From assembly GCF_011045215.1 (NCBI RefSeq), contig NZ_CP049201.1: DNA of 64,000 bases, one strand, 5' to 3'. Under the pieces are notes generated by a model. That model did no database searches. It worked only from the letters and a program-made list of their open reading frames with translations, and was not told where the DNA came from. Made by a program: the position numbers and the translations under genes. Shown here in pieces: positions 6,764-57,082 of the stretch (positions within the stretch are counted from its first letter, which is position 1; every line of letters starts with the position of its first letter). Origin of the DNA: Escherichia coli. GTDB taxonomy: Bacteria > Pseudomonadota > Gammaproteobacteria > Enterobacterales > Enterobacteriaceae.

Positions 6764-7816
6764 TCAGTCATCCGTATCAGAAAAGTTTTTACGCGTTTTT
6801 ACCTGCGCCATGCTTTCCAGAATACGGTGATAGTTTTCGAAACGGGTTTCCGCGATTTTCCCTTCCTCAACCGCTTCCCGGATAGCGCAGCCCGGATCGG
6901 TATCGTGTTTGCAATCGCGATATTTACACAGACCTAAGTAGTCATGGAATTCGACAAAACCCTGAGTGATTTGTTCCGGCTCCAGGTGCCAGAGGCCGAA
7001 CTCACGCACACCAGGGGAATCAATCACATCACCGCCGTGCGGGAAGTGATACAGCCGAGCGGCGGTCGTGGTGTGCTGACCAAGCCCCGAGTTGTCAGAG
7101 ACATCGTTGGTCAGGATCTCTTTTTGCAGCCCCAGCAACGCGTTCAGCAGGCTGGATTTACCAACGCCAGACTGCCCGGCAAAAATGCTGATGCGCCCGG
7201 TCAACGCCTCTTCCAGCGGTTTCAGCCCATCCTGAGTATGGCTGGAAACCATCAATACGCGATAACCGATATTGCGGTAGATATCCATCTGCTCGTTGAC
7301 GAATGCCATGCCTTCGTCGTCCAGCAGGTCTATCTTGTTGAGCACAATAATCGGCTCAATCTGCAAGGTTTCGCAGGCCACCAGGTAACGGTCGATAATA
7401 TTGAGCGACAGCTCCGGCAAAATGGCGGAGACAATGACAATCTGGTCGATGTTGGCGGCAATAGGTTTCACGCCGTCGTAGAAATCCGGACGCGTCAACA
7501 CTGAGGTGCGCTCATGCACCGCTTCCACGATCCCTTTGACATTTACGCCTTCCGCCGCCGGTTTACCCGGACGCCAGACTACGCGGTCGCCGGTCACCAG
7601 CGAACGGATGGTACGGCGAATATTGCAGCGGTGAACGTCGCCATCGGCGGATTCCACATCAGCGTGCATACCAAAGCGGCTGATGACGATACCTTCATCA
7701 GGCTCGCCAAACAGATTGTCGTCGTAGTCGGGCTTCTCCTTAGACGTTTTAAGACGACGCTGGTGATTGGCGTTCACGCGGCGCTGCTGGCCTTTGGAGA
7801 GTTTATTTTTACTCAA
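6764..7816 (-). CDS. rsgA: Ribosome small-subunit biogenesis GTPase RsgA (YjeQ)
   Basis: ORF 6764..7849; the 350-aa protein I remember begins [13 protein letters not shown], which corresponds to a TTG start at 7814-7816; G-motifs ([10 protein letters not shown]) present. Confidence 0.85.
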
Positions 7817-7910
7817 TCGTACTGACTCCTGGTCGCCCCTGATGGGCAAAACATCTATGATACACGCAATTGTGGATCAATATAGTCACTGTGAATGGGT
7901 GGAAAATAGC

Positions 7911-8456
7911 ATGAGTGCCAATGAAAACAACCTGATTTGGATCGATCTTGAGATGACCGGTCTGGATCCCGAGCGCGATCGCATTATTGAGATTGCCACG
8001 CTGGTGACCGATGCCAATCTGAATATTCTGGCAGAAGGGCCGACCATTGCAGTACATCAGTCCGATGAACAGCTGGCGCTGATGGATGACTGGAACGTGC
8101 GCACCCATACCGCCAGCGGGCTGGTGGAGCGCGTGAAAGCGAGCACGATGGGCGATCGTGAAGCTGAACTGGCAACGCTCGAATTTTTAAAACAGTGGGT
8201 GCCTGCGGGTAAATCGCCGATTTGCGGTAACAGCATCGGTCAGGATCGTCGCTTCCTGTTTAAATACATGCCGGAGCTGGAAGCCTACTTCCACTACCGT
8301 TATCTCGATGTCAGCACCCTGAAAGAGCTGGCGCGCCGCTGGAAGCCGGAAATTCTTGATGGTTTTACCAAACAGGGGACGCATCAGGCGATGGATGATA
8401 TCCGTGAATCGGTGGCGGAGCTGGCTTACTACCGCGAGCATTTTATCAAGCTGTAA
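7911..8456 (+). CDS. orn: Oligoribonuclease (3'-5' exoribonuclease, DEDDh family)
   Basis: ATG at 7911 gives 181 aa starting [20 protein letters not shown] (exonuclease motif I); the longer 229-aa ORF from 7767 is an in-frame upstream extension. Confidence 0.93.
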
Positions 8457-42180: not shown

Positions 42181-42642
<462 letters not shown>

Positions 42643-42663
42643 TTCGTTATTCAACGAGACGTA

Positions 42664-42695
42664 AAAACGCCGACCACTGGTCGGCGTTTTGCTTT
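42664..42695. terminator. Bidirectional intrinsic terminator between rplI and convergent yjfZ
   Basis: Stem CGCCGACCA ... TGGTCGGCG flanked by A-tract (AAAAA) on one side and T-tract (TTTTGCTTTCTATTTTT) on the other. Confidence 0.8.
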
Positions 42696-42712
42696 CTATT
42701 TTTCGTCAGGCA

Positions 42713-43507
42713 TTAATTTCGCAAGTAGATCCATTCACCATTCTCTTGTGTCCATAAGTCAGGATGGTTTGCTGGCGTTAGATACATATGAGCGCAACTG
42801 ATGTCTCGCTCCTGCGGCACTCGCTCAAAACCCAAACCCGAGTAGATTGCTGCTGAACTTGATAAGGAACGCAGACCAATTTTCAAATCATGGGGTAAAT
42901 CAGAATACGCGTTTAGCAATGCAGCAATGATGAATCCGAGGGCATTAGAAACGCCTGTAACAGTGCGAAGTTGGTCGATATAAAGATCGATTGTTGGTAG
43001 TTCAGATGACCAGCAATTAGGCATTTGGGCAGGAAGGGTTACAACGTATCCTATCGTTTGGCCGGTATAGTCTGGAGTACCATAACCAGGTCCCAAAACA
43101 ACCTCGTGTATTGTGTATCTACTGTTGGGTTCGAAGGATTCGACATCTTGCAATAAATATTTCAGTTCTGCGGTTAACCGCGCACCCGCGTAAGCTTTAT
43201 TGTATTTCTGGGCGTGAATATTATCTAATGTAGCTTCATGGTTCCATCCAAAAGAATTATCACCATTCATTGTTATTCCATCGTAAGCATTACACCTCGT
43301 CGCTAACTTATTGAATGCTTGCCAGTCTGAGAGATCTAGTTTGTGGATCTCAACAGTACGTCTGCCATCGCAATTATGATCTCTTCCACGATTTGAAAGT
43401 AATGTAGCGCGTGCGTATTGATGAAATTTTAATTTTACTGGTTTGTCGGTGGACGAAAAACGAGATAAATATGCAGGAAATGAATAAATAGTGGTTGGTA
43501 ATGTCAT
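42713..43507 (-). CDS. yjfZ: Uncharacterised protein YjfZ (DUF2686)
   Basis: 264-aa ORF in AT-rich DNA; recognised as YjfZ; no informative motifs. Confidence 0.85.
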   Translation of the reverse strand: MTLPTTIYSFPAYLSRFSSTDKPVKLKFHQYARATLLSNRGRDHNCDGRRTVEIHKLDLSDWQAFNKLATRCNAYDGITMNGDNSFGWNHEATLDNIHAQKYNKAYAGARLTAELKYLLQDVESFEPNSRYTIHEVVLGPGYGTPDYTGQTIGYVVTLPAQMPNCWSSELPTIDLYIDQLRTVTGVSNALGFIIAALLNAYSDLPHDLKIGLRSLSSSAAIYSGLGFERVPQERDISCAHMYLTPANHPDLWTQENGEWIYLRN

Positions 43508-43728
43508 TGTAATGTTACCTGTTTAATATTTTTACAAATATCGCAGCTGAATGTTCAAAGAAAAAGAATTGATATTAATAAAAATAAGTTTGTTTTCTGA
43601 AGTGGTGAAAATAGCGGATGGTGAAAGATATTAATATCAAAAATCGCTCATTATGGATATAACGATGCACCAGGGGAGAAAATGACTTCCACGCCTTACA
43701 CCGTACATTCTTGTTGTGCGGTATGTAA

Positions 43729-44078
43729 TTATTCTACGCTGTCGGTATTGGTGTATTCGTTAATCAGCAGGTTAACCAGCCACAAAAAGCCATTGAGAAA
43801 ATTATTGATTTTACATGGAATTATTATATTGCCAATCCTTGGTTTTTAAAAATTGTGCATAGTGAAAATCAAAGTAAAGGTGTGCATTATGCAAAATCAC
43901 AGCGTCTCTTAGAAATTACCCATGCGCACTTGCAGTTAATGGAATCCTTATTGGATGAAGGGAAGAAACACAATATTTTTAAGCCAGATATCGACCCATT
44001 TCAGGTGAATATTAATATTGCTGCGCTTGGGGGATATTATTTGATCAACCAGCATACGCTTGGCCTGGTTTATCCGGT
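43729..44078 (+). pseudogene. ytfA: TetR-family regulator fragment (C-terminal ligand-binding region only), apparently interrupted at its 3' end by the IS element
   Basis: Open frame from 43729 (GTG 43855 is the first listed start) encodes ...[30 protein letters not shown]...[16 protein letters not shown]..., resembling a TetR C-terminal domain; no N-terminal HTH is encoded upstream; from about 44080 the frame reads antisense through IS sequence. Confidence 0.6.
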
Positions 44079-44130
44079 GCGCCGTAAAACCCCGTCCTTC
44101 AGGGCGGGGATATACGGCGCGGTTTTCCAC

Positions 44131-44558
44131 CTAACCAGGTGTTTGCTGTTGTTCAATGTATTGACGGATGGCGGATATTGGCGCACCTCCGCAGCTACTG
44201 GCAAAATAGCCAGGACTCCACAAAACGCCTTTGTAGTAATACCTGACTGCAATATCTGGTCGATCTCGTCGCAGTAACCTACCCGATACGCCTTTGAGGC
44301 TGTTTACCAGACTGGATATCGCCAGTTTGGGAGGATAGTTAATTAACAAACGTGATCTGGTTCGCCATCCATTTCAACCAGTTCAGCTTCAAAATCAGCA
44401 CATACCTTTGAAAAGTAAGTGCGTAGTTTTTCTGTCGCGTCATGGTCAAAAATCTGGCGTCGGTATCTGGTGACAAAGACCAGGTGAACATGCATCAGGA
44501 AAACACAATGCCTTCCACGCCGGATATCGGTTTCTTTTTTCACAGACCAAAGTATCAT
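44131..44558 (-). pseudogene. tnpA: IS200/IS605 TnpA (Y1 HUH transposase), disrupted by a frameshift
   Basis: Two adjacent ORFs in different frames (44343..44558 and 44131..44349) together give a ~143-aa TnpA-like protein: ...HCVFLMHVHLVFVTRYRRQIF...EPDHV / [26 protein letters not shown]...[26 protein letters not shown]; the break is inside the HUH motif. Confidence 0.8.
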
Positions 44559-44565
44559 TTGGCCT

Positions 44566-45774
44566 GTGAAACGACTACAGGCATTTAAATTCCAGTTAAG
44601 ACCCGGTGGTCAACAGGAGCGTGAAATGAGGCGCTTCGCAGGCGCATGTCGTTTCGTTTTCAATCGTGCTCTGGCACGTCAGAATGAGAATCATGAGGCC
44701 GGTAATAAATACATCCCTTACGGGAAAATGGCTTCCTGGCTGGTTGAGTGGAAAAATGCCACTGAAACGCAATGGCTTAAAGATGCCCCGTCACAGCCAT
44801 TGCAACAGTCACTGAAAGACCTTGAGCGGGCTTACAAAAACTTCTTCCGGAAGCGGGCTGCTTTTCCCCGATTCAAAAAGCGGGGACAGAATGATGCATT
44901 CCGCTACCCGCAGGGCGTTAAGCTCGATCAGGAAAACAGTCGTATTTTTCTGCCGAAACTTGGCTGGATGCGCTACCGGAATAGCCGTCAGGTCACGGGT
45001 GTTGTGAAAAATGTCACTGTCAGCCAGTCCTGCGGTAAGTGGTACATCAGTATTCAGACTGAAAATGAAGTATCAACTCCGGTTCACCCTTCAGCATTAA
45101 TGGTCGGACTGGATGCTGGCGTGGCTAAACTCGCCACGCTGTCAGATGGCACAGTCTTTGGGCCTGTAAACAGTTTTCAGAAAAACCAGAAGACGCTGGC
45201 GAGACTTCAGCGACAGTTAAGCCGCAAGGTCAAATTCAGCAACAACTGGCAGAAGCAGAAACGCAAAATACAGCGACTGCATTCCTGTATCGCAAATATC
45301 CGCAGGGACTACCTTCACAAAGTCACAACGACCGTCAGCAAAAACCACGCAATGATAGTCATTGAGGATTTGAAGGTCAGCAACATGTCAAAGTCAGCAG
45401 CGGGTACGGTCAGCCAGCCGGGGCGCAATGTCCGGGCAAAATCAGGTTTAAACCGTTCGATACTGGATCAGAGCTGGTATGAAATGCGCCGCCAGCTTGA
45501 GTACAAGCAGCTCTGGCGTGGCGGTCAGGTGCTTGCTGTTCCGCCAGCGTACACAAGCCAGCGTTGCGCGTGCTGTGGTCATACAGCGAAAGAAAATCGC
45601 CTGTCACAAAGTAAATTCAGATGCCAGGCATGTGGATATACAGCGAACGCTGATGTAAATGGCGCTCGTAACATTTTAGCGGCGGGGCACGCCGTTCTTG
45701 CCTGTGGAGAGATGGTGCAGTCAGGCCGCCCGTTGAAGCAGGAACCCACCGAAATGATTCAGGCGACAGCCTGA
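44566..45774 (+). CDS. tnpB: TnpB (OrfB) of an IS200/IS605-family element; RuvC-like RNA-guided endonuclease family
   Basis: 402-aa ORF from GTG 44566; N-terminus [13 protein letters not shown]...[12 protein letters not shown] typical of TnpB; RuvC-I (VGLDAGV), RuvC-II (IVIEDLKV), zinc finger (CACCGH...CQACGY) and RuvC-III ([10 protein letters not shown]) all present; an alternative ATG at 44626 with an AGGAG SD would give 382 aa. Confidence 0.9.
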
Positions 45775-54574: not shown

Positions 54575-55315
54575 ATGTTAGATCAAGTATGCCAGCTTGC
54601 ACGGAATGCAGGCGATGCCATTATGCAGGTCTACGACGGGACGAAACCGATGGACGTCGTCAGCAAAGCGGACAATTCTCCGGTAACGGCAGCGGATATT
54701 GCCGCACACACCGTTATCATGGACGGTTTACGTACGCTGACACCGGATATTCCGGTCCTTTCTGAAGAAGATCCTCCTGGTTGGGAAGTCCGTCAGCACT
54801 GGCAGCGTTACTGGCTGGTAGACCCGCTGGATGGTACTAAAGAGTTTATTAAACGTAATGGCGAATTCACCGTTAACATTGCACTCATTGACCATGGCAA
54901 ACCGATTTTAGGTGTGGTGTATGCGCCGGTAATGAACGTAATGTACAGCGCGGCAGAAGGCAAAGCGTGGAAAGAAGAGTGCGGTGTGCGCAAGCAGATT
55001 CAGGTCCGCGATGCGCGCCCGCCGCTGGTGGTTATCAGCCGTTCCCATGCAGATGCGGAGCTGAAAGAGTATCTGCAACAGCTTGGCGAACATCAGACCA
55101 CATCCATCGGCTCTTCGCTGAAATTCTGCCTAGTGGCGGAAGGACAGGCGCAGCTGTACCCGCGCTTCGGACCAACGAATATTTGGGACACCGCCGCTGG
55201 ACATGCTGTGGCTGCAGCTGCCGGAGCGCACGTTCACGACTGGCAGGGTAAACCGCTGGATTACACTCCGCGCGAGTCGTTCCTGAATCCGGGGTTCAGA
55301 GTGTCTATTTACTAA
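54575..55315 (+). CDS. cysQ: 3'(2'),5'-bisphosphate nucleotidase CysQ
   Basis: 246-aa ORF with inositol-monophosphatase-family motifs ([12 protein letters not shown]). Confidence 0.95.
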
Positions 55316-55526
55316 ATTCAGATGGCAGAAACAGTGTATTTCCTGATTCTGCCATCCTGATTTATCCCAACCTAATAAGTTATAAATAAAAAGAGATTGT
55401 ATTTAAAGTGCAAAAATTCAATTGCTAATAAGTTACATTTTAATAATGAGCGTTTTTTGATAGTTTACTTCTATAATGAGATATTTAATGGCGACATAAA
55501 ATAACGAAATAAAATAAGGTAGCCAT

Positions 55527-56465
55527 ATGTTACCCAGGATCAGACACAATAATTTTATTGGTGCGGTGGAGTTATTTGTAAAATCATCGCATACAAAAAC
55601 ACATTTAAACAATTTTTTAAATAATATTCAGCATGCATTTAAGAAAAAAGATTGGATTTCGAATTATGATTGCCTGTTAACTTTGCGGGAGTTCTTTCGT
55701 TGCGCAACTCAGATTGATAAAGATAGTTATCAAGTGCTTTCATCAAAAAATGGAACTGTTAACGCTATGGATAAGTTTCTTATCAGTTTCAGCCTTAAAG
55801 ATAACGGTGCCGAATATACAATGACATTGCGAGGCAGTGGATTTGAATACGAAGAAATCCCCATAACAATAAATGAGTATAACTCATTCATGGATTTCAA
55901 AAACCGTGAATTTCCGTTAGAACAAAACAGACGATTGTATGCCTGGGATATTCTGCAGAAAAAACAGTCTGACATACCGAAAAGGATTAAAGGTTATATT
56001 CACCAGGCGATTGGTGACGTGTCTTTAGGTTATGCCTTATTGGAGGATATAGTAAGCAAATTAAAACGGGGTAAATTTGAACTCCAAATACCAGCAGGTG
56101 GAATTAAAGAATGCGATGGATGGTATATTTACGAAAAAATAATTGATGATAATTTTGCCATAGTCATAGAATCTTTGGGCTTTGCGCTTAAAATCTATGG
56201 AGGGGATGAACGTTTTCGTAATGGTTCCTCTGTTGTTTTGGAGGATGAAGATTACTCTCTTATTTATAATTTTCTGGTTAATGCAGGTTGCCAACAAGTC
56301 GGATTAGCCGAACAAGTGGATGCGATAGTAAGTGCGAATCTGGCCGCAGATAGTGATATTACCAAAGAAAAGATTTGCGAGAAATATAAATCGACCATTG
56401 AGGCGTTTAAAAAAGAGCAACTAGCGTTACCAGTATTAGTTCGGTGTAAGAACTCAGAGACTTAA
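55527..56465 (+). CDS. ytfI: Uncharacterised protein YtfI
   Basis: 312-aa ORF in strongly AT-rich DNA; recognised as YtfI; no known domain. Confidence 0.8.
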   Translation: MLPRIRHNNFIGAVELFVKSSHTKTHLNNFLNNIQHAFKKKDWISNYDCLLTLREFFRCATQIDKDSYQVLSSKNGTVNAMDKFLISFSLKDNGAEYTMTLRGSGFEYEEIPITINEYNSFMDFKNREFPLEQNRRLYAWDILQKKQSDIPKRIKGYIHQAIGDVSLGYALLEDIVSKLKRGKFELQIPAGGIKECDGWYIYEKIIDDNFAIVIESLGFALKIYGGDERFRNGSSVVLEDEDYSLIYNFLVNAGCQQVGLAEQVDAIVSANLAADSDITKEKICEKYKSTIEAFKKEQLALPVLVRCKNSET

Positions 56466-56527
56466 TTCCCCTATCCCATAGATAACGATAGGGGAAAATT
56501 ATTTTTGCAGAATTTATGTTATTGCCA

Positions 56528-57082
56528 TTATTTGAGCAACTTTTGCAGCAGGTCCATCACTTGCTGCACCTCTTCCTGAGTGAGCGCCCCGTCTTTGGCC
56601 CATTGCACGCGACCGTCTTTATCCAGCACCACTACAGCGGAACTTTCTTCATCCAGCTGCCAGGCACCGCGCGCGACGCCATTGCTATCGACAATAAACT
56701 GCGACCAGGGATAAAGCTTTTTATTACTCTCCAGACTGCTGCGCACAAACATCCCTGAACCCGGAATCGCGTCGTCGGTGTTAACAATGGTGGTGGTCTG
56801 GTAACGATCGTGCGGTAACTTCGCTGATTTAATCGCTTCAATCAGCGTCGCGTTTTTCTCTTTTGCAGAGGTGCGACCAGCAATATGTTGCAGTACTCGC
56901 ACTTTTCCCACTAACTGCGCGCTGTTCCAGGTTTTGTAGCTAAACTGATCTTTATCAAGCACCAACTCGCCCCGATCGGTAATGCCAATCGGCGGCACTC
57001 GCTGACCGGTTTCGAACTGATGTGCGGAAGCCATCATCGGCAGCAGCAGGCAGGTGAGTGCCAGAATCTTGCGTAGGGTCAT
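56528..57082 (-). CDS. ytfJ: Periplasmic protein YtfJ (thioredoxin-like, DUF1107)
   Basis: 184-aa ORF with signal peptide MTLRKILALTCLLLPMMASA. Confidence 0.88.
   Translation of the reverse strand: MTLRKILALTCLLLPMMASAHQFETGQRVPPIGITDRGELVLDKDQFSYKTWNSAQLVGKVRVLQHIAGRTSAKEKNATLIEAIKSAKLPHDRYQTTTIVNTDDAIPGSGMFVRSSLESNKKLYPWSQFIVDSNGVARGAWQLDEESSAVVVLDKDGRVQWAKDGALTQEEVQQVMDLLQKLLK

Follow-up and report, generated by a model that had tools for sequence, protein, structure and literature searches.

We describe here the locus of ytfI, a gene of Escherichia coli, within a 64-kb stretch of DNA from one E. coli strain (hereafter, the window). The gene lies between cysQ and ytfJ in a segment of about 1.2 kb, and we consider it probable that this segment is foreign, AT-rich DNA which arrived long ago with a single gene, that it sits at the overlapping stop codons of the two neighboring genes, is coated by H-NS and is probably largely silent, and that it encodes a real protein under purifying selection. 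That ytfI is an AT-rich, H-NS-bound, strain-specific insertion has already been published for K-12 (PMC4720273). To this we add the placement of the insertion point in the overlapping stops, its old age, purifying selection on the gene together with a conserved upstream region, and the independent presence of unrelated cargo at the same junction.

Organization of the ytfI locus

The segment occupies positions 55316-56527 of the window. It is preceded by cysQ (54575-55315, forward strand), which ends one base before the segment starts, and followed by ytfJ (56528-57082, reverse strand), which ends one base past the segment end, so that the segment runs from the cysQ stop to the ytfJ stop. All of it is missing from sites of the ancestral type.

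The ytfI coding sequence is an open reading frame of 312 codons with an ATG start (55527-56465, forward strand), and its product carries the RefSeq name 'protein YtfI'. A Shine-Dalgarno-like AAGGTAG, read from the sequence, stands a few bases 5' of the ATG (55516-55522, forward strand). Farther upstream, within a conserved block, a consensus scan picked out a candidate promoter (55457-55485, forward strand), in which TTGATA and GATATT are separated by 17 nt and a TG lies one base 5' of the second hexamer; in the same scan, the count of promoter-like sites was not above the expectation from shuffled sequence.

Directly after the gene, inverted repeat I13 (56466-56506, forward strand) forms an intrinsic-terminator-like hairpin, composed of TTCCCCTATC and GATAGGGGAA and then followed by TTATTTTT. 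Its RNA fold has a dG of -14.9 kcal/mol (z = -3.5) and the stem is kept across alleles, and the hairpin with its T-run is likely the terminator of ytfI. At the left end, inverted repeat I1 forms a stable hairpin (55313-55364, forward strand; RNA fold dG -22.2 kcal/mol, z = -6.3) that reaches across the cysQ stop codon (55313-55315) into the insert. Positions 55316-55364 are 88-98% identical across divergent ytfI alleles. No T-run follows this hairpin, which may be a transcript-end structure of cysQ or a boundary structure. A search of positions 55100-56800 against the Rfam RNA families gave no match at E<=1.

Composition and codon usage

The initial annotation described ytfI and both its flanks as markedly more AT-rich than the adjacent genes, and the measured values agree: the GC content of 55316-56527 is 0.343, compared with 0.544 for cysQ and 0.526 for ytfJ. 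This is the lowest value among all 1212-bp stretches of the window, for which the mean is 0.516 and the SD 0.040, and it places the segment about 4.3 SD below the mean. The window as a whole also has a GC content of 0.516. Within the segment, GC content is 0.359 in the coding sequence, 0.275 in the upstream spacer and 0.339 in the downstream spacer; along the DNA, the GC profile dips to 0.28-0.39 over positions 55250-56450, with values of 0.50-0.60 in the neighboring DNA.

Codon usage, ranked over the 46 ORFs of the window that have at least 150 codons each, is likewise atypical. The GC3 of ytfI (0.327, z = -4.2) is at the bottom of this ranking, and six rare codons together account for 7.1% of the gene versus a typical value of about 2%. 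GC3 stays at 0.30-0.33 in every ytfI allele despite long divergence. In the insert, tracts of five or more A/T bases reach three times, and TpA steps twice, the density found in the remainder of the window, which fits the recruitment of H-NS. The 10-mer TCGATAAATT, the high-affinity H-NS motif, showed no enrichment in the insert.

Empty and occupied sites

The site is flanked by cysQ and ytfJ in 5420 of 5426 complete E. coli genomes, and ytfI is present between these flanks in 1609 (~30%). In the E. coli genomes that lack ytfI (~70%), the 2183-bp query shrinks to a span of 963 bp, and cysQ and ytfJ converge with an overlap of 11 bp. For a scan across species, we took one genome per species, used YtfJ as the query and, in the 80 loci that this returned, mapped CysQ, YtfJ and YtfI with tblastn; genes were counted as abutting if they met within 29 nt of their last aligned residues. 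The two flanking genes abut tail-to-tail in 73 of the 80 Enterobacteriaceae species, and ytfI is absent from the syntenic site in 79 of the 80 species representatives. The gene is therefore patchy within E. coli and is not a pan-Enterobacteriaceae gene.

The junction is identical in length and register in Citrobacter, Salmonella, Klebsiella, Enterobacter, E. whittamii and empty-site E. coli. An example of this ancestral-type junction is TCTATTTATTGAGCAACTTATGCAG of E. whittamii, in which the cysQ stop sits inside the last codons of ytfJ. Because the same register recurs across genera and the genes abut in so many species, the empty state is ancestral and the ytfI segment is a 1.2-kb insertion, whose insertion point lies inside the overlapping cysQ and ytfJ stop codons.

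Comparison with the empty-site junctions places a copy of the ancestral overlap at either end of the insert. The left copy, TCTATTTACTAA (55304-55315, forward strand), holds the cysQ stop, and the right copy, CATTATTTGAGCAAC (56526-56540, reverse strand), supplies the stop of ytfJ. The two copies span about 9-15 nt and are degenerate, agreeing at 12 of 15 positions in AT-rich sequence, and they are presumably the result of a duplication. Since this short stretch stands on both sides of the insert, the C-terminus of YtfJ is changed in the occupied allele, where the 184-aa protein ends in QKLLK, versus HKLINK at the end of the 185-aa protein of empty-site E. coli.

IS elements adjoin or replace ytfI in some genomes. 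In ETEC1738, an IS1 replaces ytfI and the 3' end of ytfJ, leaving ytfJ truncated, i.e. an imprecise deletion.

Age of the insert and selection on ytfI

The DNA of the segment is 97.3% identical to that of K-12, and the ytfI allele of the window differs from the K-12 allele by 13 nonsynonymous and 13 synonymous changes. OkiPb01695 gives the best match, with 99.5-99.7% identity. More divergent full-length alleles, P0008 and P0010, with 77% and 68% protein identity, occupy the same slot between cysQ and ytfJ; over the whole +/-6 kb locus, their host genomes share about 96% and 91% identity with the window. We considered a local ancient haplotype within E. coli as the source of these alleles and rejected it: the divergence is locus-wide, so that the alleles belong to separate Escherichia clades.

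Synonymous divergence tells a similar story for the gene and its surroundings. Between the window and locus L010, dS is 0.65 for ytfI, 0.67 for cysQ and 0.54 for ytfJ; between the window and locus L006, it is 0.33 for ytfI, 0.21 for cysQ, 0.11 for ytfJ and 0.235 for cpdB. The dS of ytfI thus tracks that of its flanks approximately. Given this joint divergence of ytfI and its flanks across Escherichia clades, we regard the acquisition as old and not recent. Taken together, these comparisons indicate that the insertion predates the divergence of the ytfI-bearing clades, or else that it was exchanged among them long ago together with its flanks.

The gene evolves quickly. Pairwise estimates of dN/dS for ytfI range from 0.22 to 0.43, compared with 0.01-0.07 for its neighbors in cross-clade comparisons, which makes ytfI about ten times less constrained. 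Constraint is nevertheless visible, with pN lower than pS in every comparison (Fisher p from 6e-4 to 5e-20). Relative to the 68% allele, identity is 0.80, 0.835 and 0.69 at the first, second and third codon positions, i.e. highest at the second and lowest at the third, and the most constrained block of the protein covers residues ~53-156. The reading frame is intact in all four allele lineages, at lengths of 304-312 aa and at dS values of up to 0.85, and an internal indel between alleles is in frame. At the composition of ytfI, a stop-free frame of 312 codons would arise by chance with a probability of 9e-12. The evidence from the alleles indicates that ytfI is a real protein-coding gene under purifying selection and not decaying junk. 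Conservation also extends beyond the coding sequence: against the 68% allele, identity is 83% in the upstream spacer, higher than the 69% at third codon positions, which suggests that the region 5' of ytfI is a constrained regulatory region.

Many of the copies of ytfI in the databases are truncated or frameshifted, and for this reason we believe that selection on the gene is weak or conditional. The gene is dispensable, and its loss or disruption is frequent.

The YtfI protein

YtfI has 312 aa, a mass of 35.8 kDa and a pI of 6.0, and contains no hydrophobic segment. As it is mildly acidic and non-hydrophobic, it is presumably cytoplasmic. The initial annotation reported no motif that could be recognized in the protein, and searches of domain and family collections have borne this out. 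Nothing in Pfam was significant (the best match, SPK/DUF545, had an E-value of 0.1), there was no match in NCBIfam, and the single match in PADLOC-DB v2, Cas6b over 41 residues (E 0.0088, 13.9 bits), is not credible. Against PHROGs, residues 75-138 gave a weak match to PHROG 3250 (E 6.8e-4), a family without a known function. A profile search of PDB sequences gave zero matches at E<=10. The AlphaFold2 model is poor, with a pLDDT of 47.5; fold searches with this model were uninformative, and Foldseek returned nothing from BFVD at E<=0.001. No domain can thus be assigned with confidence.

Searches of very large sequence collections returned only YtfI. When 1.84 billion representative proteins were searched exhaustively with phmmer, 18 matches resulted, all of them fragments of YtfI itself at 67-96% identity, and a search of 5.8 billion clusters produced 17 matches, every one of which, where a source was named, came from E. 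coli or Shigella. By these searches, YtfI is a genuine lineage-restricted orphan.

We also looked for relatives in viruses. With full-length YtfI as the query, tblastn against 50,697 phage records gave no match at E<=1. An 83-residue segment of the protein matched phages only as cyanophage hypothetical proteins at E>=0.8 and as tape-measure noise at E>=2, and an hhalign comparison of YtfI with a 92-aa cyanophage hypothetical protein, at a probability of 49.7%, was not convincing. No relative of YtfI was encoded in the IMG/VR viral contigs that were scanned. An internal repeat in YtfI was considered and rejected, as BLASTP of one half against the other gave an E-value of 0.39.

H-NS binding and other published data

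ChAP-seq data for K-12 show H-NS bound to ytfI, which is described there as an inserted segment specific to the strain; the binding spreads to cpdB, cysQ, ytfJ and ytfK, while in SE11 and SE15, which lack ytfI, H-NS binding there is absent (Higashi et al., 2016, PMC4720273, S10 Fig legend). The window comes from another strain and carries this gene in the corresponding position, likewise AT-rich and strain-specific. By analogy with K-12 (PMC4720273), the allele of the window would be coated by H-NS too.

The initial annotation called the gene likely silenced. H-NS occupancy, published for the K-12 allele at 97.3% identity (PMC4720273), stands behind this suggestion; occupancy in itself is not proof of silencing, and silencing in this strain is a plausible extension of the K-12 result.

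Other reports mention ytfI in passing. Among the 'disputed' sigma-32 ChIP-chip peaks it ranked first, and it was later used to illustrate false-positive ChIP regions (PMC3870955). Of the ASKA overexpression clones, 23 grew at 3x MIC of HOCl, that of ytfI among them (PMC8228696), and YtfI was among the top 153 binders of lactoferricin B on a proteome chip (PMC3229523).

Mobility and other cargo at the junction

The insert carries no transposase, integrase or recombinase; its sole substantial ORF is ytfI, in which Pfam and NCBIfam detect no domain of this kind. An inverted-repeat search found no pair of terminal inverted repeats at the insert ends. The segment is present at a median of one place per genome. 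A plasmid origin was considered and rejected, as the four matches concerned were chromosome-sized or engineered records and not true plasmids.

The cysQ/ytfJ junction has also received DNA unrelated to ytfI. In E. albertii, it holds a 385-aa pentapeptide-repeat protein; in Citrobacter youngae, a membrane protein together with a radical-SAM/SPASM enzyme; and in two Kluyvera species, an insert of ~913 bp each, which encodes a Peptidase_S11 protein in the one examined. These cargoes are not defence genes. In holding unrelated cargo in different taxa, the junction resembles the chromosomal integration hotspots that lie between core genes. Unlike classical island hotspots, it carries a cargo of only one or two genes and has no integrase, tRNA or recognizable att site, and since it is empty in 73 of 80 species, it is a weak and occasional landing site.

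Origin of ytfI and alternative explanations

The initial annotation also proposed that ytfI was acquired horizontally, and this proposal has gained support from the empty syntenic sites, from the atypical composition and codon usage, and from the lack of any homolog beyond fragments from Escherichia and Shigella. The case for a horizontal origin is one of composition and synteny, our searches having found neither a donor nor a relative. If ytfI were instead ancestral at this locus in Escherichia or Enterobacteriaceae, the empty sites would be the products of repeated deletions. At least three divergent Escherichia lineages do carry the gene at this junction, with a dS similar to that of the flanks, and losses do occur, for example the IS1-associated deletion in ETEC1738. 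That deletion, however, is imprecise and takes part of ytfJ with it, whereas the empty sites of E. coli match those of Citrobacter, Salmonella, Klebsiella and Enterobacter in both the length and the register of the overlap and the genes abut in 73 of 80 loci; it is implausible that repeated deletions would restore the exact overlap, and we consider this history very improbable. The same overlap bears on an origin of ytfI within E. coli, either de novo or by runaway divergence of a native sequence, with its AT-richness brought about by local mutation or selection. No donor was found, and the GC3 of 0.30-0.33 that persists in all alleles despite their divergence would sit well with such a local cause. 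Yet the ancestral site, where the genes overlap, offers no intergenic DNA, so that the 1.2 kb must have come from elsewhere, and no native paralog is obvious, the segment being present at a median of one place per genome; we give a native origin hardly any credence.

A different question is whether the frame encodes anything at all. A spurious, non-functional frame in AT-rich junk could account for the lack of homologs and of a domain, the AlphaFold2 pLDDT of 47.5, the frequent truncations and frameshifts, and the absence of the gene from 70% of strains, but it is very hard to reconcile with a chance of 9e-12 for such a frame, with intact products of 304-312 aa at dS of up to 0.85, with pN below pS at p values down to 5e-20 and with the in-frame indel. 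We therefore think it most unlikely. If the protein is real, ytfI could be a phage-derived 'moron' or a single-gene anti-phage defence or conflict gene in a chromosomal hotspot. It is AT-rich, fast-evolving, patchy and a single self-contained gene, the junction takes other cargo, and both the PHROG 3250 match (E 6.8e-4) and the cyanophage profile match (probability 49.7%) lean weakly in this direction. Set against them are the absence of a full-length tblastn match at E<=1 in 50,697 phage records, where even the 83-residue segment reached only E>=0.8, the absence of an IMG/VR relative and of a BFVD match at E<=0.001, a best PADLOC match (Cas6b) of E 0.0088, and the fact that the other cargoes at the junction are not defence genes. 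On balance, we regard a phage or defence origin as unlikely.

Our preferred explanation, an old foreign insertion that H-NS keeps largely quiet, would run as follows. In the ancestor from which some Escherichia lineages descend, foreign AT-rich DNA would have entered exactly at the convergent, overlapping stops of cysQ and ytfJ, and the stretch of overlap now found at both ends would have allowed both genes to retain their stop codons. The insert is a self-contained unit, in which a conserved AT-rich upstream region, holding a candidate promoter and a candidate ribosome-binding site, precedes a gene of 312 codons and a terminator-like hairpin. Its high AT content would lead H-NS to coat it, as published for K-12 and as we suppose for this strain, and the coat would probably keep ytfI largely silent and extend H-NS binding to the neighboring genes. 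The product is a real, soluble protein of ~36 kDa that evolves fast under purifying selection. Of these elements, the composition, the insertion state, the orphan status, the constraint on the coding sequence and the age are shown by the present comparisons, and H-NS occupancy is taken from the K-12 study (PMC4720273); silencing in this strain, the duplication at the junction and any function of YtfI are inferred.

Implications

Daubin and Ochman reportedly concluded in 2004 that the ORFans of E. coli are AT-rich and fast-evolving and suspected that they come from phages. ytfI resembles such ORFans in being AT-rich, in having homologs only in Escherichia and Shigella and in having a dN/dS above that of its neighbors. 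It is unlike the typical E. coli ORFan in that it is old, being common to clades that are ~9% diverged, and in that phage ancestry is not demonstrable from phage records or IMG/VR. ORFans are also typically shorter than the 312 aa of YtfI.

As for what the protein does, we would tentatively guess at an accessory role, of use under some conditions, in stress or conflict. One could go further and propose that YtfI is a functional, Escherichia-restricted protein with a fold that is absent from the structure databases, that since before the split of E. coli from its ~9%-diverged sister clades its gene has persisted at a single chromosomal site, present in some genomes and absent from others, and that the constrained core and conserved upstream region reflect an activity that is regulated and of benefit only under certain conditions, such as conflict with phages or other bacteria, or oxidative stress. 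This fuller proposal is speculative, and we hold it to be unlikely. A role in oxidative stress would fit the appearance of ytfI in the ASKA screen for HOCl resistance.

None of these findings overturns the current understanding. What the locus offers is a clean textbook case, in which a single orphan gene sits precisely in the overlapping stops of two core genes. The empty ancestral state still segregates in E. coli, which makes isogenic comparisons of presence and absence easy. If a function were found for YtfI, the set of K-12 proteins of unknown function would gain one more characterized member. More generally, ytfI shows that 'AT-rich and H-NS-bound' need not mean recent or decaying.

Other genes at the cysQ/ytfJ junction

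The slot between the convergent cysQ and ytfJ genes, which holds ytfI in the window, carries other genes elsewhere. In E. albertii it is occupied by an AT-rich insert unlike ytfI (GC 0.33, 1513 bp), whose gene lies at 6792-7949 of the E. albertii NBRC 107761 locus (L014) and specifies a pentapeptide-repeat protein of 385 aa (Pfam PF00805, E 7.6e-12). The same gene is found at 4527-5684 of L003, a locus from a genome labelled as E. coli strain SCPM-O-B-9504. In Citrobacter youngae ATCC 29220, the junction contains a two-gene cassette of 2.1 kb (L042, 6676-8631). One of its genes codes for a predicted membrane protein of 298 aa with a C-terminal tail rich in Cys, Gly and Ser, and the other for a radical-SAM/SPASM enzyme; the two look like a peptide-maturation pair. 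Two Kluyvera species (L066, 6556-7608, and L069) each have an insert of ~913 bp at this position, with a normal GC of 0.55, which in L066 encodes a Peptidase_S11 (D-Ala-D-Ala carboxypeptidase-like) protein.

Strain labels and annotation

The L003 record is probably a mislabelled E. albertii, since the final 416 bp of its cysQ are only 84% identical to those of the window, and in pairwise comparison with the window it gives almost the same dN and dS for cpdB, cysQ and ytfJ as L014 from E. albertii does. A record named ‘Chryseobacterium sp. 18061’ (L035, contig CACSKA010000007.1) contains a cysQ/ytfJ locus of enterobacterial type, with 82-90% protein identity to that of E. coli, and this assembly is probably mislabelled or contaminated. 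The annotation of the E. coli K-12 assembly NZ_CP047127.1 lists cpdB, the neighbour of cysQ, as a pseudogene that contains an internal stop (L089, 1-570).

A second AT-rich region in the window

The window has a second AT-rich, codon-atypical region at 42400-44700, with a GC of ~0.38. It includes an open reading frame of 264 aa on the minus strand (42713-43507; GC3 0.352, rare codons 7.6%), and the RefSeq genome annotation for the region is yjfZ, a DUF2686 family protein. The neighbours of yjfZ are a TetR/AcrR regulator and an IS609 element of the IS200/IS605 family, which consists of tnpA and an InsQ/TnpB RNA-guided endonuclease, with rplI nearby. Only 1744 of the 5426 complete E. coli genomes searched cover at least 80% of this region.

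Insertion sequences at the ytfI locus

IS elements are active at the cysQ-ytfI-ytfJ locus. In E. coli ETEC1738 (L090, 4215-5294), an IS1 takes the place of ytfI together with the 3′ end of ytfJ, with ytfJ truncated. In two further loci (L004, 5967-6421, and L005, 4146-5126), a DDE_Tnp_1/DUF772 transposase gene directly follows the divergent full-length ytfI allele, whose product is 68% identical to the YtfI of the window.
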